DNA of 64,000 nucleotides from NCBI GenBank assembly GCA_017991415.1, contig JAGOQR010000004.1, forward strand, positions 17,549 through 81,548, given 5' to 3'. Numbering within the stretch: the first letter of the stretch is position 1; the number at the start of each line of letters is the position of its first letter. This DNA comes from Candidatus Magasanikiibacteriota bacterium (GTDB taxonomy: Bacteria > Patescibacteriota > Patescibacteriia > Magasanikbacterales > GWA2-37-8). Under the pieces are notes generated by a model. The model was given only the letters and a program-made list of their open reading frames with translations, did no database searches and was not told the DNA's origin. Below are positions 31,214 to 41,682 of this stretch, piece by piece. The position numbers were made by a program, and so were the translations under genes.

Positions 31214-31258
31214 TCGCATTGACAAGTTTGTGCAGGTCTTGTTACCATAGCTGTTACT

Positions 31259-31681
31259 ATGATTGAATTTTCAAAAGAAAATCACGGAGAATTGTTGGGT
31301 TTGCGAGAGTTTTTAGATAAAAAACATAGATTGTTGATGGAAAAAATTGCTAATTCATCAACTCTGTCGTCTGATACTGTAGATATTTTACCTAATAATC
31401 ACCGTGCGCCAAATCGTACAATTGGTTTTGATGCACAAAAAAACAGGCAGCATCCGATAAGGCTGCACACTGCTCTTGCTGACAAGTATAGTGATATTTT
31501 TCGCGACATTGAAACATTAGCACATGATTATTTTGACGCAGCTCAAAAAGCGTTGCAAATGGGTAACTTATCTGATGCACGGAATTTTATAGATGAGGCA
31601 ATGCAGCTTCCTGCTCAATTTGAAATGCATGTGCCGAAAGAGTTTATTGAGCTTAACGCCGAGATTTTGTCCAAATTCTAG
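31259..31681 (+). CDS. Hypothetical protein
   Basis: 140 aa soluble ORF. TTGACA at 31219 lies upstream. No family recognised. Confidence 0.4.
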   Translation: MIEFSKENHGELLGLREFLDKKHRLLMEKIANSSTLSSDTVDILPNNHRAPNRTIGFDAQKNRQHPIRLHTALADKYSDIFRDIETLAHDYFDAAQKALQMGNLSDARNFIDEAMQLPAQFEMHVPKEFIELNAEILSKF

Positions 31682-31744: not shown

Positions 31745-33190
31745 ATGTCCTATACCGTTGCCCAAAATACCTCATTTCTTACGGTTGCCTCTGTCTTGCA
31801 GAAGGTGATTTCTTTTTTTTATTTTATCTTTGTAGCCCGCATGATTCAGGTAGAAAATACTGGAGTCTATTTTTTTGCAATTACCTTTACTACGATTTTT
31901 ACCGTAGTCGCCGATTTTGGCATGGGTCCAGTTCTTACCCGAGAAGCGGCACGATTTCCCGATAGAGCTCAGAATTACTTTAATACGGTGTTTTGGACCA
32001 AAATAATGTTTGGCTTAGGTGCATATTTGCTTATTGTTTTCTTTGCTAATATTTTACATTACCCCGAATCTACCAAGCTCCTTATCTATATTTCGGGTAT
32101 TACCATGTTTTCGGACAATCTTACTACTGCCTTTAATAGTATTTTTCGTGCGCGTAAAAATTTGGTGTACGAATCAATGGGGGTTATCGGGTCTCAGTTT
32201 ACCACACTCCTTATTGGTACGTTTGCATTGTTCAATCACTGGTCGCTTGTATGGCTTATTATTGCTTATACTATTCCAAGTTCTCTCAATTTGTTATACA
32301 TGAGTTTGGCTCTCAAAAAAGTCTACGGCATTACAGTCAAATTTATTTGGAATTCACAAGTATTTAAAATATTTTTGGCCACGGCCTTGCCGTTTGCGTT
32401 GGCAGGAATTATTGGTCGTTTATATTCGTATAGCGACTCGCTCCTTATGTCCAAAATGCTCACTGCCAAAGAATTGGGTTTTTGGAGTGTGCCATACAAA
32501 ATTAGCTTTGCGTTTCAGTTTATCCCTGTCGCACTCTCGGCCAGTGTCTACCCAGTCTTTAGCAGCCTATTTTTGACCGAAAAAACGGCCATAGGACCGT
32601 TATTTGAGAAGTCATGGCGGTATTTGTTTGCCATTGTCTTTCCGCTGTCTCTCGGGCTTATAGCGGTGGCCGATCCAGTGGTGCGCCATGCTTTTGGCGA
32701 GCAGTACGCACCATCTATTATGCCGCTTCGTATCTTGCTTGTTAGTTTGGTATTTGGATTTTTAGCTTTTATTACAGGCGCATTACTCAATGCTACCAAT
32801 CGTCAAAAAACACAGACTGGACTTATTGCTACGGTTTTAGTTATTAACATTATTTTAAATTTAATTTTACTACCAAAGTTTAGAATAAACGGCGCTGCTA
32901 TTGCAGCTCTGGTGAGTAACGCGGTTCTGTGTTTGGTTGGTTTTTATTTTTCTATTCGCCAAGTACCAATTCGCTTAAAAAATATTGCAAGCTATATCAA
33001 TCAAACATTGTGGCCAGCCGCGGTTATGGCTATAGTGGCATATGCCTTGTCGCTTAAAGTTCATTACTTACTTGCTATTGTTATTGGTGGTATTATCTAT
33101 ATTACCTTATTAATTTTTACCAAAGTAATCACCAAAGAAATTATTCTGATGATTCTCAATAAAATAAAACCAAAATCACGAACTGTATGA
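31745..33190 (+). CDS. Polysaccharide/oligosaccharide flippase (Wzx-like, MOP superfamily)
   Basis: 481 aa, ~12-14 TM, with N-terminus typical of the polysaccharide biosynthesis protein family. Confidence 0.8.
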   Translation: MSYTVAQNTSFLTVASVLQKVISFFYFIFVARMIQVENTGVYFFAITFTTIFTVVADFGMGPVLTREAARFPDRAQNYFNTVFWTKIMFGLGAYLLIVFFANILHYPESTKLLIYISGITMFSDNLTTAFNSIFRARKNLVYESMGVIGSQFTTLLIGTFALFNHWSLVWLIIAYTIPSSLNLLYMSLALKKVYGITVKFIWNSQVFKIFLATALPFALAGIIGRLYSYSDSLLMSKMLTAKELGFWSVPYKISFAFQFIPVALSASVYPVFSSLFLTEKTAIGPLFEKSWRYLFAIVFPLSLGLIAVADPVVRHAFGEQYAPSIMPLRILLVSLVFGFLAFITGALLNATNRQKTQTGLIATVLVINIILNLILLPKFRINGAAIAALVSNAVLCLVGFYFSIRQVPIRLKNIASYINQTLWPAAVMAIVAYALSLKVHYLLAIVIGGIIYITLLIFTKVITKEIILMILNKIKPKSRTV

Positions 33191-34296
33191 AAACTTTAAT
33201 TATCACCCTTGAATACCCGCCCCAGATTGGTGGCGTTGCCTCGTATACCTACAATCTTGCCAAAAATATGACTCCCGAAGATGTAGTGGTATATGCGCCG
33301 CAAATGCCAGGCGAAGCAGAATTTGATAAAAAAAATCCATGGAAAGTATTCCGCGCTAAGCCATATTTTTTGTTGTTGTGGCCTCGATGGATAAAATTGC
33401 TATGGCAAGTATGGCACATAGTTAAGCAAGAGCAAATTGGCCAAATTTATGTGCACCACGCACTGCCAGCAGGCTATGTAGCTTTGCTTATATCAAAATT
33501 CAAACATATTCCATACACCATATTTTTTCACGGCACCGATTTATTATTAGGAGTAAAAAATAAGAAAAATAAATTAAAAAAAGTGTGTGCGGGTGCGCAA
33601 AAAATTGTGGTAAATAGTCAGTTTTTAAAAAATCAATTCTTGACTCATTTTGAAAGTGTTAAAAAAGAGGTGGTTGTTATTTATCCATGTCCAGATAAAA
33701 GTTTTTTAGCAACCGTGCCTGAAAATGAAATTAAAAAAATAAAATCACAATTAGCATTGGAAGGAAAAAAAGTAATTATTACCGTGGCGCGCATGAGTGA
33801 GGGTAAAGGTTTTCCGCATATTATTCGCTTGTTGCCAAAAATATTAGAAAAAGTTCCCAATCTTGTTTGGCTTATCATTGGTGATGGCCCCAAGAAAACC
33901 GAAATTATAACCGCTATTCAAAAAAATTATTTACAAAATGTAACTCGCTTTATTGGGCAAGTGCCGTATGCACAACTGCCAAAGTATTATCAGGTATCAG
34001 ATTTATTTGTCTTACTTACTCATCCCGATGAAAGCGGTCAAGAAGCGTGGGGCACATCGTTTGTAGAAGCAGCTGCCTCGGGTATTCCGTCGGTGGCTGG
34101 TCGCTCTGGTGGGGTAGAGGAGGCAGTGCAAAATTTGGTTACAGGACTGGTAGTAGATGTATATCAAGATCAAAGTATTATCTCGGCAATATCGGATATT
34201 TTGCGAGAAACAGATTATGCTAAAAAGATGGGCCAAGCTGGTAAAGAAAGAGTGCAAAACGAATTTACCTGGGAAAAACAATTAGAGAAACTATAA
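33187..34296 (+). CDS. Glycosyltransferase family 4 (GT-B, 'glycos_transf_1')
   Basis: C-terminal E-x7-E-type motif FVEAAASGIPSVAGRSGGVEEAV. Its start overlaps the flippase stop. Confidence 0.85.
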   Translation: MKTLIITLEYPPQIGGVASYTYNLAKNMTPEDVVVYAPQMPGEAEFDKKNPWKVFRAKPYFLLLWPRWIKLLWQVWHIVKQEQIGQIYVHHALPAGYVALLISKFKHIPYTIFFHGTDLLLGVKNKKNKLKKVCAGAQKIVVNSQFLKNQFLTHFESVKKEVVVIYPCPDKSFLATVPENEIKKIKSQLALEGKKVIITVARMSEGKGFPHIIRLLPKILEKVPNLVWLIIGDGPKKTEIITAIQKNYLQNVTRFIGQVPYAQLPKYYQVSDLFVLLTHPDESGQEAWGTSFVEAAASGIPSVAGRSGGVEEAVQNLVTGLVVDVYQDQSIISAISDILRETDYAKKMGQAGKERVQNEFTWEKQLEKL

Positions 34297-34301
34297 TTTG
34301 T

Positions 34302-34814
34302 ATGAAGAATGAGCTATTAAAGCAAGAAATACTCACAATGGTTTATGCCGATCAAAAAATGAGAAAAAGTAATCATTGGAATTTAGATCTAGATAAGCAA
34401 AACACCGAAAGAGTTAAAAAAATTATTTCACAATATGGGTGGCCAGGAAAATCAATAGTAGGTGAAGAAGCGGCTAATGGGATATGGCTTTTAGTGCAAC
34501 ATGCTGATCATGATATTGAGTTTCAAAAAACAGCATTAAAGTTTTTGCAAGAAGCGGTTATTAGTGGGGAGGCAGAGAAAAATAACGAGGCTTATTTAAT
34601 AGATAGGGTAAAAGTAAACTCAGGACAACCACAAATATTTGGAACACAATTTTACGAAGACAAAAAGAAGCAATTTGGTCCATGGCCAATTGAAGATTTT
34701 GAAAATATTGAAAAAAGAAGAATGCAATTTGGTTTAGAGCCATTTTTCAATTATAAGCAATTGATGTTACGAAGGCATGTAGAGTTAAAAAATAAAGAGG
34801 AGCAAGTAGTTTAA
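34302..34814 (+). CDS. Hypothetical protein within glycan locus
   Basis: 170 aa soluble ORF. No confident family. Confidence 0.45.
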   Translation: MKNELLKQEILTMVYADQKMRKSNHWNLDLDKQNTERVKKIISQYGWPGKSIVGEEAANGIWLLVQHADHDIEFQKTALKFLQEAVISGEAEKNNEAYLIDRVKVNSGQPQIFGTQFYEDKKKQFGPWPIEDFENIEKRRMQFGLEPFFNYKQLMLRRHVELKNKEEQVV

Positions 34815-34824
34815 GATTTTTTGT

Positions 34825-35556
34825 ATGCAACCATTAATTAGTGTAATTATTCCAGTTTTTAACCACGCTCATACACTTAAAGCCTCTATAGAGAGTGTTT
34901 TTCGTCAAACCTATCGACCTCTCGAAATAATTGTAGTTAACGATGGCAGTACAGATAATTTTGATCAGGTGGTCGATGAATGTTTGCAACTTACCGAAAA
35001 CAATTGTATTGGTGCAGGAAGTTTGTTATCTATATTGTCTCAAGAAAATAGTGGTGCGCCAGCTGCGAGAAATAAAGGCTTTGCCGCTTCCAAAGGTGAG
35101 TATGTTATTTTTTGGGATGCAGATACCATGGCCGAAAATACTATGTTGCAAAAAATGTTTGACGCTCTGCAAAAAAATCCGCAAGCTGCTTATGCGTATA
35201 GTCAATTTAAATTTGGTTGGAAGGTTATGAAAAGCCAGCCGTTTGATGCAGAAAAATTAAAACAGCTAAACTATATAGATGCTACCTCGCTCGTTCGTCG
35301 CTCGGCTTTGAATCCTACTCCGTGGGATGAAAAATTAAAGCGTTTTCAAGATTGGGACCTGTGGCTTGGTTTGTTGGAGAAGGGGAAAACAGGTGTTTTT
35401 GTGTCCGAAGTTTTATATGCAAAAATAGTGAAAGGGAGAATGGGTATAAGTAATTGGTTACCTAGTTTTATGTTTAAGTTACCGTGGAAGACGAGTGGGG
35501 TAAAGAGGTATGAAGAGGCGAGGAGTGTTGTTTTGAGGAAATATAAAATAATATGA
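34825..35556 (+). CDS. Glycosyltransferase family 2
   Basis: ISVIIPVFNHAHTLKASIESVFRQTY...VVNDGSTDN...FWDADTMAE. GT-A fold with a DxD motif. Confidence 0.8.
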   Translation: MQPLISVIIPVFNHAHTLKASIESVFRQTYRPLEIIVVNDGSTDNFDQVVDECLQLTENNCIGAGSLLSILSQENSGAPAARNKGFAASKGEYVIFWDADTMAENTMLQKMFDALQKNPQAAYAYSQFKFGWKVMKSQPFDAEKLKQLNYIDATSLVRRSALNPTPWDEKLKRFQDWDLWLGLLEKGKTGVFVSEVLYAKIVKGRMGISNWLPSFMFKLPWKTSGVKRYEEARSVVLRKYKII

Positions 35557-36326
35557 ACTTGTTTTTTGAAACAAAATTAGCAGACAAATATACAAACCTT
35601 TCGCAAAAAGTAAGAGTTTTGACGGAAGATTGGGTCGATAGACAAGTTTATTGTCCAAACTGCGGGCATCTGGAAATTAATAAGTACGAAAATAATAAAC
35701 CCGTCGCTGATTTCTTTTGTTCTAATTGTAAAGAAGATTACGAATTAAAAAGTAAAAAAGATTCCGTTGGAGTAAAAATAATTGATGGCGCTTATCGAAC
35801 AATGATTGAAAGATTGCAAAGTACGAATAATCCAAATTTCTTTTTACTAAATTATGATTTAAGAGATTTCTCTGTTTTAAATTTTCTTGTTATTCCAAAG
35901 CACTTTTTTGTTCCGGGTATTATTGAAAAACGTAAAGCATTATCACAAACGGCTAGACGTGCTGGCTGGATTGGTTGTAATATTTTATTACAAAGTATTC
36001 CACAAACAGGAAAAATATTTTTTATAAAAAATCGTCAAATTGAATCAAGAGAGAAAGTCCTCGCAGGATGGAAAAAAACATTATTTTTGCGTGAACAAAA
36101 GGAGATTTCCGCAAAAGGGTGGCTGCTTGATATTATGAGGTATATAGACTTGCTCGGAAAGAAAGAATTTGTACTAGACGATGTTTATGCTTTTGAAAAA
36201 CCTTTAAGTAAATTACATCCTGAAAATAAACATGTTAAAGAAAAAATTCGTCAGCAATTACAAATCCTGCGCGATAAAGGTTACTTGGATTTTGTTTCTA
36301 TAGGGGTATATAGATTAGTAAATTAA
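35553..36326 (+). CDS. DpnI-like / Dam-replacing (DRP) family methyl-directed restriction endonuclease (G-m6A-TC specific, Type IIM)
   Basis: 257 aa. SQKVRVLTEDWVDRQVYCPNCGH...PVADFFCSNCKEDYELKSKK...ARRAGWIGCNILL...KEKIRQQLQILRDKGY closely parallels S. pneumoniae DpnI (ILTEDWVYRQ.YCPNCG...KIRQQLQILRDK), as recalled from memory of the DpnI sequence rather than a search. The start overlaps the GT2 stop by 4 nt. Confidence 0.75.
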   Translation: MNLFFETKLADKYTNLSQKVRVLTEDWVDRQVYCPNCGHLEINKYENNKPVADFFCSNCKEDYELKSKKDSVGVKIIDGAYRTMIERLQSTNNPNFFLLNYDLRDFSVLNFLVIPKHFFVPGIIEKRKALSQTARRAGWIGCNILLQSIPQTGKIFFIKNRQIESREKVLAGWKKTLFLREQKEISAKGWLLDIMRYIDLLGKKEFVLDDVYAFEKPLSKLHPENKHVKEKIRQQLQILRDKGYLDFVSIGVYRLVN

Positions 36327-36335
36327 CTTTAATTT

Positions 36336-36488
36336 ATGAAATTAAAAGAATTTATTAGTGCATTAGAAAAGATTGTAAACAAGGTTGATGAACCAGATAC
36401 AATCGAAGTTAGATTGGCAGATTTCGCCCCAGTGGTAAGTCCAGTTTTAAAAGATAATATAGTATTTGTTACAGATTTAAATAAATAG
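36336..36488 (+). CDS. Possible small ORF (50 aa), hypothetical
   Basis: MKLKEFISALEKIVNKVDEPDTIEVRLADFAPVVSPVLKDNIVFVTDLNK. It falls below the ORF-track size cutoff and has no supporting homology. Confidence 0.25.
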   Translation: MKLKEFISALEKIVNKVDEPDTIEVRLADFAPVVSPVLKDNIVFVTDLNK

Positions 36489-36524
36489 CAAGTTTATTGG
36501 CTAAATGCTTAAACTATAATTAGT

Positions 36525-36830
36525 ATGCTCTTCCACAAAACCCCGCCCACCCCAACCCCAACCAAAAAAATAATCTACCTCATCTCTTGGGTCGTTTTAG
36601 GCGCACTCCTTGGCTTTCTCGCCTATATTTTTATAGAAATTAAATATATTAGCTGGATAGTAGCGCACGATACAACTATCGTATCTTTTAACGACAAAGT
36701 TATTTGGCCATTGCTCCATTTTGGCCTATTGTTGCTCGGTGCCATTGGCGGGTATTTCCTTGGCCGTATGTGGTGGAGAAAAGTATATATTGAGAAGTAT
36801 TGGGAAAAGAAATTTAATAATTTAAAATAA
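36525..36830 (+). CDS. Hypothetical small membrane protein (2 TM)
   Basis: 101 aa with a Pro/Thr-rich N-terminus, then 2 hydrophobic helices. Confidence 0.4.
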   Translation: MLFHKTPPTPTPTKKIIYLISWVVLGALLGFLAYIFIEIKYISWIVAHDTTIVSFNDKVIWPLLHFGLLLLGAIGGYFLGRMWWRKVYIEKYWEKKFNNLK

Positions 36831-36840
36831 ATTTTATTAT

Positions 36841-37011
36841 ATGGATGACAAAAACGAAGATTTTTTAGATTTAGTAAATTTTGAACAAGAGACCAAGCAC
36901 CTTATGGATCAATATGGCTTGGATTCTGATACTGCCGAACGGGCAAAAGAAATTATGGATACTAGTGATGTAACAGAAGAAGAGGCTATTGAAATGGCCG
37001 AGGAGAATTAA
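36841..37011 (+). CDS. Possible small acidic ORF (56 aa), hypothetical
   Basis: MDDKNEDFLDLVNFEQETKHLMDQYGLDSDTAERAKEIMDTSDVTEEEAIEMAEEN. It falls below the ORF-track size cutoff and has no homology evidence. Confidence 0.3.
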   Translation: MDDKNEDFLDLVNFEQETKHLMDQYGLDSDTAERAKEIMDTSDVTEEEAIEMAEEN

Positions 37012-37031
37012 TAGTATAAGTATTTTTTTGT

Positions 37032-37346
37032 ATGGAAAAAGATAGAGGTATAATTGATTTAGCAGTAGAGCGTGAGAAAAGATTAAAAACAGCTCCGGAT
37101 GCAGTAGTAGATTTTGATGGCGCTGAAGACGAAACAGAACTGGATACAAGTCATTTTTTGTATCATGTAGACAATGATTTGGTTCGTGAGGGTTGGCGCC
37201 CCTTTTCATTTGTTGAGATAAATACAGGTACGCTAAAAAATAGAGAAGAAGTAAGAAAGCTTGCTGGATGGAAAAATGTACAAGAAAAAGAATCCACTAT
37301 AAAAGATGGCGGTAAACCGTGTATTGTATTTTATGGTAAAAACTAA
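37032..37346 (+). CDS. Hypothetical protein
   Basis: 104 aa, acidic N-terminal half. It is first in a run of 4-nt-spaced or overlapping genes ending at the Pif1 helicase. Confidence 0.4.
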   Translation: MEKDRGIIDLAVEREKRLKTAPDAVVDFDGAEDETELDTSHFLYHVDNDLVREGWRPFSFVEINTGTLKNREEVRKLAGWKNVQEKESTIKDGGKPCIVFYGKN

Positions 37347-37349
37347 GGT

Positions 37350-37976
37350 ATGTTCGATCTGACTAAACAAGAATTAAAAATATTTAAAAAATTAACTACG
37401 CCCATAAAAATCCAGGATTTTTTGGATAGTGTGCCAGTTAATTGGGAGAAAAAAGGGGAGACATATATGTCTCCGCGTCGGGCACTCCAAGCTCAAAAAA
37501 TGCATTGTTTTGAAGGGGCTTTGTTTGCCGCCGTGGCCCTGTGGCTTAATGGTGAAGAGCCACTGGTAATGGATTTTAAAAATAAAGGGGACGATGACCA
37601 TGTGGTAGCTTTGTATAGGCGCAATGGCTATTGGGGAGCGATAAGCAAAACCAATCATGCTTCGGTGCGGTTTCGTGACCCAGTGTACAAAACTATCCGC
37701 GAATTAGCTCTTTCTTATTTCCATGAATATTTTAGAGAGCGTGATGGTAAAAAAACGTTAGTTAGTTTTTCTTCTAAACCATTTGATTTACGGGTCTTTG
37801 GCACTGGCTGGATTACAACGCCAGAGGACTTAGATGCTATTGCCGAAGCTGTCGACGTGGCTCCGCACACAATGATTTATCCAAAAAAGAACGCACGCTT
37901 TATTCGCACTGCCGATGCGATGGAGCAAAAAGCAGGCAGACTTATTGAATGGAAAAAAAGTGACCCAAGAACCTAA
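37350..37976 (+). CDS. Hypothetical protein with candidate Cys/His catalytic pair (possible papain-like/transglutaminase-fold hydrolase)
   Basis: 208 aa. QKMHCFEGALFAAVAL ... DDDHVVALYRRNGYWG resembles the Cys...His arrangement of NlpC/C39-like folds. This is speculative. Confidence 0.4.
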   Translation: MFDLTKQELKIFKKLTTPIKIQDFLDSVPVNWEKKGETYMSPRRALQAQKMHCFEGALFAAVALWLNGEEPLVMDFKNKGDDDHVVALYRRNGYWGAISKTNHASVRFRDPVYKTIRELALSYFHEYFRERDGKKTLVSFSSKPFDLRVFGTGWITTPEDLDAIAEAVDVAPHTMIYPKKNARFIRTADAMEQKAGRLIEWKKSDPRT

Positions 37977-37979
37977 TAT

Positions 37980-38372
37980 ATGATAATTCCTCCAGACGAA
38001 CTTGTTATTACCTTTGCCAGGTCATCGGGAAAAGGCGGGCAGAACGTGAATAAAACATCCACGAAAGTTTTTGTACACTGGGGAATAGAAAATTCTACCG
38101 TATTAACTGATGATGAGAAAAATCGAGTACGGACAAAATTGGCTAATAGAATAAATAACGAAGATGAGCTCGTTGTATTTTCGGAAGAAGAACGCTCGCA
38201 AGCGCAAAATAAAGAATTGGCGATAAGTAGATTGCAGACGCTAGTTGATGAGGCATTGGTTGTACCAAAAATTCGTCGTGCTACCAGGCCAACGCTCGGT
38301 TCAAAAATAAGAAGAATAGAATCAAAACGAATGCGTTCTCAGATTAAAACACAGAGACGAAGTGTTGAGTAA
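37980..38372 (+). CDS. arfB: Alternative ribosome-rescue factor ArfB-type peptidyl-tRNA hydrolase (RF-1 domain, GGQ)
   Basis: 130 aa with GGQ motif SSGKGGQNVNKT and a basic C-terminal tail (KIRRIESKRMRSQIKTQRR). Confidence 0.85.
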   Translation: MIIPPDELVITFARSSGKGGQNVNKTSTKVFVHWGIENSTVLTDDEKNRVRTKLANRINNEDELVVFSEEERSQAQNKELAISRLQTLVDEALVVPKIRRATRPTLGSKIRRIESKRMRSQIKTQRRSVE

Positions 38373-38373
38373 T

Positions 38374-38619
38374 ATGTATTACCTCTATATCCTGGAATGT
38401 GCAGATAAAACATTGTATACTGGTATCACCGTAGATTTAGAACGAAGAGTGCGCGAACACAATACCTCGGCTATTGGTGCAAAATATACGCGTGCCCGAA
38501 GGCCTGTGCGACTCGTATATAGTAAAAAATTTCGCAATCGGTCTACCGCTTCCAAAGCGGAAAGTAAAATAAAAAAACTGAGCAGGGAAGCAAAGCTACA
38601 TTTAATTTCTCTCGTATGA
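38374..38619 (+). CDS. GIY-YIG nuclease family protein (UPF0213-like)
   Basis: YLYILECADKTLYTGITVDLERRVREHN is a GIY-YIG core. ATG 38374 is preferred over GTG 38362. Confidence 0.85.
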   Translation: MYYLYILECADKTLYTGITVDLERRVREHNTSAIGAKYTRARRPVRLVYSKKFRNRSTASKAESKIKKLSREAKLHLISLV

Positions 38620-40292
38620 CGCAAGATCAGGCGCTTGATATTTTAAAAACTGGCGCTAATGTTTTTTTAACTGGTGAGCCTGGAGCAGGTAAAACACATA
38701 CCATCAATCAGTATGCGTCTTATTTGCGTACGAGAGCTATAGAGCCATCTATTACTGCTTCTACAGGTATTGCCGCTACTCATTTGGGTGGTATGACCAT
38801 TCATTCCTGGACTGGCATTGGTATTAAAAAATACTTGGATAAATATGAGTTAGATAAAATTTCTTCTACCGAATATCTGGCCAAACGTATTCGCCGCGCC
38901 AAGGTTCTTATTATCGACGAGGTGTCTATGCTTGGTCCCGAAACACTCGATATGGCCGATGCAGTTTGTCGAAATATTCGTCAAAACAATGACGCCTTTG
39001 GTGGGTTGCAAGTTATTTTTGTTGGTGATTTTTTTCAATTGCCGCCAATTGTGCGAAACGAAACAAGCCAAGACCCGCAAACCTCGATGCTCCAAGCGCC
39101 CAAAGCTCGTTTTGCCTACGACGCATCTGCGTGGCAGAGAGCCAGGCCAGTTATTTGTTATCTTACCGAGCAACACCGCCAAGATGACGATGCTTTTTTA
39201 CGTCTTCTTTCTGCTATTCGTACTAATAGTTTTGGCAGTTCTCATTTAGAAGAAATTAAAAACAGAAAAATATTTAGTGATAAGGGGATGGATAAAGCGG
39301 TAAAATTGTATACTCGTAATATAAATGTAGATCGAACTAATGATGAAATGCTTGCAACGGTGGTAAATCGACCAGTTACTTTTGAGATGAAAACAAAAGG
39401 TGCGCCAGCGCTCGTTGCAGCTCTGCAAAAAGGGTGCCTGTCTCCCGAAAAATTAATTCTCAAAGTTGGTGCCAAAGTAATGTTTACTAAGAATAATCCT
39501 AAAGAAGGATTTGTAAATGGTACGCTCGGTACGGTAGAAGGTTTTGATACATATATTGGTCTACCAATTATACGAACAAACGATGGTCGTAAAGTTATGG
39601 TAGAAGCTATGGATTGGAGTGTAGAAGAAAATGGTAAACCGCGCGCCACGATAACTCAGGTACCGCTCCGGCTCGCATGGGCAATTACGGTGCATAAAAG
39701 CCAAGGCATGAGTTTGGAAGAAGCGGTTATGGACCTAAGCGATGTGTTTGAGTTTGGCCAGGGGTATGTGGCCTTATCTCGTGTCCGTAGACTATCGGGG
39801 CTTCATTTGCTTGGCTGGAACGAGCAGGCATTTCAAGTTCACCCAGAAGTACTCCAAAAAGATAAAGATTTCCGAGTTAATTCCGAAGCTACAGAGCTTG
39901 CTTTTGGCAAAATTTCAAAAGAAGAATTGGCTATCATGCACAAAAATTTTATTAAAGCTTGTTCGGGAGATGAAGTGTCTGAAAAAGAAAAAGTAGTTTC
40001 CAAAGCAAATTCTGATAGTGAGGAGATAGTATACGCGCCAGTGACAGGGCCAGACTATGTACCAGGAAAAAGAAAAAATAGAACAAGTACCATGAAAGGT
40101 AAGGGGCATGAAAAAGTTCGAGAAAAACACCCTAATGCGTTTAAGACATGGAGTGAGCAGCAGGACGAAGAGCTCAAAGAATTTTTTGCCAACGGCGTAC
40201 CGCTCCAAGAAATTGCCGAAACGCTTGGTCGCAAATCGGGTGCTGTGGCTATGCGGCTTACTAAGCTTGGGTTGATGGAAGATTTGGATTAA
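38616..40292 (+). CDS. Pif1/RecD-like SF1B DNA helicase with C-terminal HTH domain
   Basis: Walker A LTGEPGAGKTHT, motif II IIDEVSML, motifs VFVGDFFQLPP and ITVHKSQGMSLE. The C-terminus WSEQQDEELKEFFANGVPLQEIAETLGRKSGAVAMRL is helix-turn-helix-like. The start overlaps the GIY-YIG stop. Confidence 0.85.
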   Translation: MTQDQALDILKTGANVFLTGEPGAGKTHTINQYASYLRTRAIEPSITASTGIAATHLGGMTIHSWTGIGIKKYLDKYELDKISSTEYLAKRIRRAKVLIIDEVSMLGPETLDMADAVCRNIRQNNDAFGGLQVIFVGDFFQLPPIVRNETSQDPQTSMLQAPKARFAYDASAWQRARPVICYLTEQHRQDDDAFLRLLSAIRTNSFGSSHLEEIKNRKIFSDKGMDKAVKLYTRNINVDRTNDEMLATVVNRPVTFEMKTKGAPALVAALQKGCLSPEKLILKVGAKVMFTKNNPKEGFVNGTLGTVEGFDTYIGLPIIRTNDGRKVMVEAMDWSVEENGKPRATITQVPLRLAWAITVHKSQGMSLEEAVMDLSDVFEFGQGYVALSRVRRLSGLHLLGWNEQAFQVHPEVLQKDKDFRVNSEATELAFGKISKEELAIMHKNFIKACSGDEVSEKEKVVSKANSDSEEIVYAPVTGPDYVPGKRKNRTSTMKGKGHEKVREKHPNAFKTWSEQQDEELKEFFANGVPLQEIAETLGRKSGAVAMRLTKLGLMEDLD

Positions 40293-41682
40293 CTTTTTTT
40301 GCAAGAAGTAACGTTATAAAAATAATTCCCATAACGTGAAATAGAGCAGGGGAAGTTAGGTTAATGACCAGTAATGCCAAGAGTGCCGCAGGCAACCCGT
40401 ATTGTTTGGCAATAAGACGTAAGGCGTATGCAACAAGTGATAACCAAATAAGCAGCCCAAGCATTCCCATTTCAGCTATAATTTCTAGATATCCCCAGTC
40501 GAAGTGCGGTGTAGTAATATTTTGTTTAAATACAGGGCTATATACTGTTACCGTATCGCCCAAACCATTACCCAGCACAGGGTGATTTTTTATTTTTTCG
40601 AGTATTTTTGGTAGTAGTAATACACGGCTTAGCGAGCTCTCTTCGGTCTGCGGGGCAGTTATGCTTTGGAGGCGTAGACCAAAAAATTCCCAACCTAAAT
40701 TTTTGCCCCGGCTAGTCGCGAGGTGTGCAGTGGTAAAAATTATAATAAAACCAATTACCGTGGCAGTAGAAACTACAAACCAGCGCTTCCAATTGGTTTT
40801 GGAAAATAAAAATAACAATCCAACGCCAAGTGCGAGAATATAAATACGGGTGAGGTTTACGGCGAGGATTGCCACAAGTGCCCCTGTTACTCCAAAGAGA
40901 ATTTTGTGTAATAGCGTGGTGGCTTCGTTGGTTTTTTTATCTACAATAATACGGCTGATAAAGAAAATTAAGAGTGGAATAAGCAGTAAATGTTCATTGA
41001 GAACAATGCGATAAAAATTAAAACCATACTCAGTAATTTTGCCACTGGCTATATCGCGAAACCAATGATAGTAGTTGTCTTGCAGCACAAGCAGTTTGCT
41101 AGAGAAACCAACAAGAGTTATATACATTAAGATACAGTTGCCGATAATAGCAGATAGAATCATGCCAAAAGTAATACGGCGGAAGGGTTCAGATTGTAAG
41201 AGTTGTTTGAGAGGAAAGTAATATAAAAAGAAAAAATAGGGGACAGTATCGGCAATAATTAAATGTGGAGCATGATGAAAGTAAAAACCATGAAAAACAG
41301 AAATGGCTGTAGTGATGAGTAAGCCTGTAAGGAGGTAGAAAATAGTTTTATTTTCTAAAAATAAGGTATATTTTTTTTCTTTTATTGTGTGATATAAAAA
41401 AATACCAAGAGAAGATATAAGCAAAAGTGTTCGGAGCGCTATTCCGTTTATTTCTAAAAAACTTCCTGCACCACCCAGTATTATTTCGGCAGCAATAATC
41501 AGCCAGCCCCGTATATCTTTTTTGAGTAAAAAATAAATAGCAGTGGCCAAAATACCAGCCGAAATAATCCAGTTTATAGGATTGGCCGTATATAGTGGTG
41601 TGCCAGGGCTAAAAAAATAAGAAAAAATTCTGATGGTAATATATATCATCAGCCCCCCTGTTATTTGTTTTTTCAAATTCAT
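40261..41682 (-). CDS. O-antigen ligase/polymerase family membrane protein (Wzy_C / WaaL-like)
   Basis: 473 aa, ~12 TM. A periplasmic loop carries HFDWGYLEIIAEMGMLG, matching the Wzy_C signature H-x-x-YLE...E.G. Its 3' end overlaps the convergent Pif1 gene by 32 nt. Confidence 0.7.
   Translation of the reverse strand: MNLKKQITGGLMIYITIRIFSYFFSPGTPLYTANPINWIISAGILATAIYFLLKKDIRGWLIIAAEIILGGAGSFLEINGIALRTLLLISSLGIFLYHTIKEKKYTLFLENKTIFYLLTGLLITTAISVFHGFYFHHAPHLIIADTVPYFFFLYYFPLKQLLQSEPFRRITFGMILSAIIGNCILMYITLVGFSSKLLVLQDNYYHWFRDIASGKITEYGFNFYRIVLNEHLLLIPLLIFFISRIIVDKKTNEATTLLHKILFGVTGALVAILAVNLTRIYILALGVGLLFLFSKTNWKRWFVVSTATVIGFIIIFTTAHLATSRGKNLGWEFFGLRLQSITAPQTEESSLSRVLLLPKILEKIKNHPVLGNGLGDTVTVYSPVFKQNITTPHFDWGYLEIIAEMGMLGLLIWLSLVAYALRLIAKQYGLPAALLALLVINLTSPALFHVMGIIFITLLLAKKVNPNLPSTQA

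Follow-up and report, generated by a model that had tools for sequence, protein, structure and literature searches.

R.DpnI of Streptococcus pneumoniae, the product of dpnC, is a Type IIM enzyme with published structures (PDB 4esj/4kyw), and the two structure papers (PMC3424567, PMC4117772) supplied the set of functional residues used in this analysis. Both give E25, D53, E64 and K66 as the catalytic residues. A structural zinc site is formed by two CXXC motifs, C34, C37, C56 and C59 (PMC3424567), the bases of GATC are contacted within the catalytic domain by S17, N48, D78, R126 and R135, and the methyl pocket of the same domain comprises L129, R135, W138 and G140 (PMC4117772). Recognition residues of the winged helix are E228, K229, R231, Q232 and Q235 (PMC3424567). 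Drg/NmeBII of Neisseria, the 'dam-replacing gene' product, belongs to the same family (Pfam 'Dam-replacing family'); it cuts only GmeATC, and its gene forms part of an insertion of low GC content that was gained by horizontal transfer (PMC4269198). Winged-helix fusion endonucleases that depend on m6A (PD-(D/E)XK-wH and other types; FcyTI, Psp4BI and others) are stand-alone m6A sensors like DpnI. In a published survey they have no methyltransferase neighbour in 87% of cases, with potential methyltransferase conflicts for fewer than 100 among more than 1,000 such fusions (PMC11037411).

The window, by which we mean the whole 64,000-nucleotide stretch of DNA analyzed here, is part of an 831-kb contig and carries a gene for a protein of the DpnI family (Table 1). 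[quoted passage not shown] With Pfam, PF06044 covers residues 1–181 of the protein (E 1.5e-81, 272.8 bits against a cut-off of 26.7) and PF17726 covers residues 187–254 (E 2.1e-28, 98.7 bits against a cut-off of 23). A PDB search aligned R.DpnI chain 4esj_A collinearly and at full length with residues 1–254 (E 2.1e-85), and the PADLOC model mREase_II, for Type II methyl-directed restriction enzymes, matched at E 6.4e-116. Similarity of this order lies far beyond chance; a search of NCBIfam with the protein returned no model. The motifs that the original prediction had named as characteristic of DpnI, namely VLTEDWVDRQVYCPNCG, PVADFFCSNC, ARRAGWIGCNI and KEKIRQQLQILRDK, are all found in the translated ORF, and each aligns to the matching stretch of 4esj_A.

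The protein is thus close to R.DpnI, having the same length, the same collinear two-domain architecture and 52% identity, and in neither case is a methyltransferase adjacent. It is closely orthologous to DpnI and does not represent a new fusion of the FcyTI or Psp4BI kind. The setting differs from that of the pneumococcal dpnC-dpnD cassette in that the gene occupies another chromosomal site and the downstream gene has no detectable similarity to DpnD/PcfM (Pfam, E <= 0.1). The gene shares with drg its stand-alone nature and low GC content; however, drg in Neisseria interrupts dam itself, whereas the window gene is flanked by a glycosyltransferase gene on one side and small ORFs on the other, and no remnant of dam is seen. 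The upstream GT2 is intact and aligns end-to-end with its orthologues, and tblastn detected no Dam-like fragment in the window. NCBI already names the protein 'restriction endonuclease [Candidatus Magasanikbacteria bacterium]' and PADLOC recognises it. The gene is unremarkable within a known family, its annotation exists already, and a clear orthologue of this kind adds little by itself.

Table 1. Features discussed in the text. Positions refer to the window unless a comparison locus (L number) or residues of the DpnI-family protein are given.
Feature	Position	Strand	Remarks
Wzx-like flippase	31745-33190	+	glycan-cluster context, after ribosomal-protein/RpoA operon
GT4	33187-34296	+	glycan-cluster context gene
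DUF6624	34302-34814	+	glycan-cluster context gene
GT2 glycosyltransferase	34825..35556	+	last + strand gene of conserved backbone; upstream edge of hotspot; outside module
ATGA, DpnI start codon over GT2 stop codon	35553..35556	+	4 nt
DpnI-family Type IIM restriction endonuclease gene (assigned by sequence)	35553..36326	+	257 aa, ATG to TAA; NCBI protein MBP6859908.1
PD-(D/E)XK catalytic domain with Cys4 zinc site	about residues 1-181		N-terminal in DpnI-family ORF
Winged-helix domain	about residues 187-254		C-terminal in DpnI-family ORF
Family C gene	36336..36488	+	50 aa; MBP6859909.1, KBC69_04835; 9 nt after DpnI stop codon
Low-GC two-gene module, DpnI and family C	35553..36488	+	GC/GC3 and identity discordance
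Accessory block between convergent GT2 and Wzy_C	35553..40292	+	DpnI, family C, ORFs of 101, 56 and 104 aa, 208-aa protein, RF-1-domain protein, GIY-YIG, PIF1-like helicase
Wzy_C gene (O-antigen polymerase/ligase-like)	40261..41682	-	downstream edge of hotspot
L101 hotspot cargo			NYN and MazG-like
L104 hotspot cargo			Fic, MazG-like, 146-aa DpnI-catalytic-domain-only protein
L108 hotspot cargo			MazG-like and PD-(D/E)XK protein
L102 hotspot cargo			RhuM/Fic, TdeIII-family nuclease, D12 methyltransferase, N6_N4 methyltransferase
L099 hotspot cargo			DpnI, then NERD protein
Methyltransferase stub, example	L057 6941-7168
Methyltransferase stub, example	L095 1504-1752

At the residue level, 22 of 22 checked positions are identical between the window protein, whose numbering is +1 relative to DpnI after residue 103, and pneumococcal R.DpnI, and they are nearly invariant across 200 homologues. 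These positions are the residues named above together with P50. The window protein shares the four catalytic residues with no fewer than 195 of the 200 aligned homologues; the four zinc cysteines are all present, the GATC-contacting and methyl-pocket residues are all unchanged, and the five winged-helix residues are likewise retained, inside the segment KEKIRQQLQ. Pairwise dN/dS against five relatives is 0.07–0.15, with dS saturated. The identical residues and the low dN/dS point to an intact DpnI orthologue under selection. Conservation of the catalytic, zinc-binding, GATC-reading and methyl-pocket residues agrees with the assignment to Type IIM that had been made, and Gm6ATC-dependent cleavage is, as far as sequence can tell, a well-supported expectation for this protein.

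Because the alignment with 4esj_A begins at residue 1 of both proteins, homology backs the annotated start codon, and the 4-nt overlap of that codon with the GT2 stop, as proposed originally, is therefore real. The Wzx-like flippase, GT4 and GT2 genes upstream are also as described, although DUF6624 and the opposite-strand Wzy_C had been omitted from that description. With Wzy_C included, DpnI does not stand at the end of the glycan cluster as had been thought, being located inside it, between GT2 and Wzy_C. Scans for promoters and terminators near DpnI performed no better than on shuffled sequence, and nothing stands out between GT2 and DpnI; as such, read-through transcription from GT2 is plausible given the overlap. 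The best sigma-70-like match in the region (31219-31248; TTGACA, an 18-nt spacer and a TG-extended TACCAT) is found just upstream of an unannotated 140-aa ORF at 31259, in a region where promoter-like matches overall are no commoner than in shuffled sequence. It could be the start of a glycan transcription unit running into DpnI.

Comparison with 80 related metagenomic loci, retrieved with the GT2 protein as anchor, revealed a conserved backbone in which ribosomal proteins/RpoA, Wzx, GT4 and GT2 lie on one strand and face Wzy_C, Fmt, Def and PriA on the other. Counts were made on the 55 loci that extend 1.5 kb or more past GT2. Wzy_C is kept in 42 of these, and in 23 of the 42 it is 150 bp or less from GT2, which is to say that the site is empty. 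The accessory block that separates the two genes in the window is missing from most relatives. Within the window's subclade the cargo at this position differs from genome to genome (five loci, Table 1). The GT2/Wzy_C junction is thus a well-defined accessory hotspot in Magasanikbacteria-like genomes and should be useful for following gene flux in reduced genomes.

Two of the relatives, both without a full-length DpnI, carry proteins of 143–146 aa at the same hotspot (L102 9963-10394 and L104 8434-8874) that match the DpnI catalytic domain alone (PF06044, E 7e-7 and 5e-8) and have no winged helix. A DpnII-type complementary cassette at this site was also considered. The restriction-modification nuclease of L102 is of the TdeIII family, so no DpnI/DpnII complementarity is shown.

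The base composition of DpnI and of the family C gene that follows it sets them apart from their surroundings. GC and GC3 are 0.310 and 0.225 for DpnI and 0.288 and 0.196 for family C, against 0.383±0.036 and 0.324±0.063 for the window genes, placing the pair about 2 SD lower in GC and about 1.6–2 SD lower in GC3. Sequence identities of DpnI and its flank are discordant as well. In L099, GT2 is 77% but DpnI 71% identical to the window; in L005, the syntenic reference genome, GT2 is 65% but DpnI 83% identical. This discordance implies that one version of the module has repeatedly given way to another at the same site, and the low-GC module was, judging from composition and identity, probably acquired horizontally. 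When the DpnI of L099 (1214-1984) is set beside that of L005 (4446-5216), it is seen that the closest relative by flank has the more distant DpnI, and it has no family C gene.

Downstream of DpnI, the original prediction reported a run of ORFans. That description holds only for the 104-aa ORF (37032..37346), for which no relative was detected among the compared loci. The 50-aa ORF belongs to the nuclease-linked family C, L016, L099 and L102 contain homologues of the 101-aa and 56-aa ORFs, and the 208-aa protein (37350-37976) is conserved in seven relatives at 69–77% identity, with no Pfam, PADLOC or PHROG match. The latter protein bounds the hotspot's most variable part on its downstream side, and after it come the RF-1-domain (ArfB-like) protein, the GIY-YIG protein and the PIF1-like helicase, a block found in this subclade only. 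In integron arrays, attC recombination sites of about 60–140 bp lie between promoterless ORFs. The spacers between ORFs from 36326 to 37350 are 9, 36, 10, 20 and 3 bp, too short for attC sites, and an integron-type cassette array was rejected for this reason.

Homologues of the family C gene are found in 14 of 76 DpnI loci from other genomes, always 0–384 bp downstream and on the same strand, and nowhere else among 10,560 ORFs. A profile search returned 432 clusters, of which those with an organism name are mostly from CPR MAGs. No source gives these clusters a function; where they are named, the name is 'hypothetical protein', save for one 'chitinase' that is evidently a mislabel. Nine members were then chosen blind to their neighbours, a small sample of independent contexts, and all nine lie directly downstream of a stand-alone nuclease, seven of DpnI and two of an NmeDI_C-type enzyme. 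The seven pairs with DpnI sit in unrelated housekeeping contexts, often with a 4-nt overlap, and the other two members follow a protein of 243–245 aa annotated as PF27126 NmeDI_C. The linkage of family C to stand-alone nucleases is robust. An AF2 model of the 50-aa protein has one helix and three strands (pLDDT 79.6), for which no structural match was found, and a search for fusion partners among 1.84 billion representatives yielded none.

Other small genes recur around these nucleases. Across 78 DpnI loci, a family A gene (63–160 aa) follows in 42 and a family B gene in 17. In about 20 loci DpnI is preceded by a methyltransferase stub, i.e. the conserved N-terminus (35–109 aa) of an N6_N4 (beta-class, FADPPY) methyltransferase, directly upstream and often overlapping. 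The same stub, here of 82–84 aa, directly precedes the nuclease at both NmeDI_C loci, and at one of them the nuclease is followed by a gene of the same family A that follows many DpnI genes. Families A, B and C have no match in Pfam (E <= 0.1, DpnD/PcfM included), PADLOC or PHROGs, and the accessible part of the winged-helix fusion survey (PMC11037411) makes no mention of such small downstream genes. A paralogous relationship among the three was rejected (hhalign probabilities of 1% or lower).

A tentative and rather doubtful reading of this arrangement is that of a mobile 'restriction frame' in CPR/DPANN, in which a methyltransferase stub, a swappable DpnI or NmeDI_C nuclease and then families A, B and C travel together, family C being a dedicated accessory factor (a regulator, inhibitor or targeting subunit) and not a hitch-hiker. 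If this were so, the nucleases served by family C would probably be modification-dependent, and the frame would by analogy be akin to the pneumococcal exchange of DpnI and DpnII cassettes, but across phyla. The small-gene frame, and family C above all, is the one lead of wider interest at this locus. A family of about 50 residues without recorded annotation is tied to stand-alone nucleases and, if functional, would constitute a new accessory component of modification-dependent restriction.

The enzyme had also been called solitary and its host Dam-negative. Searches of the 64-kb window by tblastn and phmmer with six probes, and a DPPY-motif scan, turned up no D12-class or beta-class DNA methyltransferase, and the 10 kb past its right end show no DNA methyltransferase either. 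The E. coli Dam probe served as a tblastn lead only, and Pfam then confirmed its matches in L049 and L102. 'Solitary' accordingly stands in that DpnI lacks a methyltransferase partner in the window, and fails in that the conserved family C gene lies directly downstream. The window contains 146 GATC sites against 161 expected, an observed/expected ratio of 0.91 that is neither depletion nor enrichment and is uninformative on methylation status. A Dam-negative host would be a reasonable supposition from the part of the genome covered. In L010 (3389-4180) and L012 a full-length N6_N4 methyltransferase of 263 aa lies directly upstream of DpnI, which shows that some lineages tolerate a methyltransferase as its neighbour.

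Taken jointly, these observations make it highly likely that the gene encodes a functional R.DpnI orthologue that travels with the 50-aa gene as a low-GC module in the GT2/Wzy_C hotspot and has no functional link to the envelope. The enzyme is a single chain and would make blunt double-strand cuts in Gm6ATC; unmethylated GATC sites of the host would be left alone, and incoming double-stranded DNA with Dam-type methylation, whether phage or plasmid, would be destroyed. Through its overlap with GT2, the module may be reached by transcription that reads through from the glycan operon. The action against Dam-methylated DNA that the original prediction ascribed to the enzyme is probable. We know of no Dam-methylating phage of this host. 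The same prediction went further in seeing an unusual coupling of defence and envelope. On this view DpnI would be a regulated member of the Wzx-GT4-GT2 operon, and glycan synthesis and restriction would be co-controlled for a biological reason. The 4-nt overlap with no detectable terminator speaks for this, as does the same GT2-DpnI junction in one relative, L099. However, L099 is the only one of the 55 related loci in which DpnI directly follows GT2, which abuts Wzy_C directly in more than half of those retaining the latter gene. In L005, a stretch of 2.4 kb with five other ORFs separates the two genes, and L005 is the only one among 78 DpnI loci from other genomes to have an upstream GT2 homologue, the other contexts being tRNA synthetases, MreB, LexA and others. 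The overlap is ordinary besides, since 8 of 54 same-strand neighbour pairs in the window overlap, 4 of them by exactly 4 nt. The comparative context largely refutes the coupling, which we consider very improbable. As the DpnI module sits in a variable accessory-gene hotspot, its association with glycan genes appears accidental, and the overlap would reflect tight gene packing after insertion.

It is also improbable, though slightly less so, that a DpnI-like fold serves a different role here, the protein being inactive, altered in specificity or, as for gonococcal Drg, of effect on gene expression or physiology. Deletion of drg in N. gonorrhoeae alters the expression of 195 genes and biofilm formation (PMC4269198), and DpnI has star activity on other m6A contexts (PMC3424567). 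Against this, every catalytic and specificity residue is identical to that of R.DpnI, with none of the substitutions that might hint at a new specificity, and the protein is under strong purifying selection. An episymbiotic CPR cell unable to make nucleotides might use the enzyme for nutrient scavenging, degrading Dam-methylated host or environmental DNA with its own genome unharmed, and the very wide spread of a highly conserved DpnI in CPR and DPANN would fit a lineage-wide need. We think this very unlikely, since no secretion signal was noticed in the protein, the gene is found among other defence-type accessory genes at the hotspot, its distribution in close relatives is patchy in the manner typical of defence genes, and natural competence brings in single strands, which DpnI does not cut (pneumococcal biology, PMC3573125).

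A metagenomic protein collection contains about 8,000 DpnI homologues at E <= 1e-10. The best 120 of these are 73–86% identical to the window protein; about 20 of the 120 are named, around half of them with an organism, and these are mostly CPR MAGs along with a single Omnitrophota and a single Thermodesulfobacteriota. The 78 DpnI loci from the scan of reference genomes belong to many CPR lineages as well as to Omnitrophota, Desulfobaccales, Dehalococcoidales, a Nanoarchaeota MAG and an Altiarchaeales MAG. The abundance and high conservation of DpnI-type enzymes in the metagenomic collection suggest that Dam-methylated invaders are a common selective pressure in these communities. A phage origin of the module was rejected, as IMG/VR contains no close relatives, with just two full-length DpnI homologues of about 50% identity.

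Methyltransferase genes or fragments also lie beside the DpnI homologues of two other genomes. In the Patescibacteria SAG AH-259-L07 (L049 6058-10786), an AlwI-family restriction-modification system with two D12 methyltransferases and RE_AlwI lies directly upstream of the homologue, with which it would conflict if it methylates GGATC. In a Segetibacter MAG (L075 9404-10774), the homologue comes just after a 148-aa fragment that corresponds to the N-terminus of a Dam-like D12 methyltransferase. This is the only true dam remnant encountered, and it resembles the Neisseria type of dam replacement, here in a member of the Bacteroidota.

Among 4-bp palindromes, CCGG shows much the strongest depletion in the window (1-64000), with 25 sites observed against about 83 expected, a ratio of 0.30. 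This suggests long-term exposure to restriction that targets CCGG. In other CPR genomes, nucleases of the NmeDI_C type occupy the cassette frame described above.
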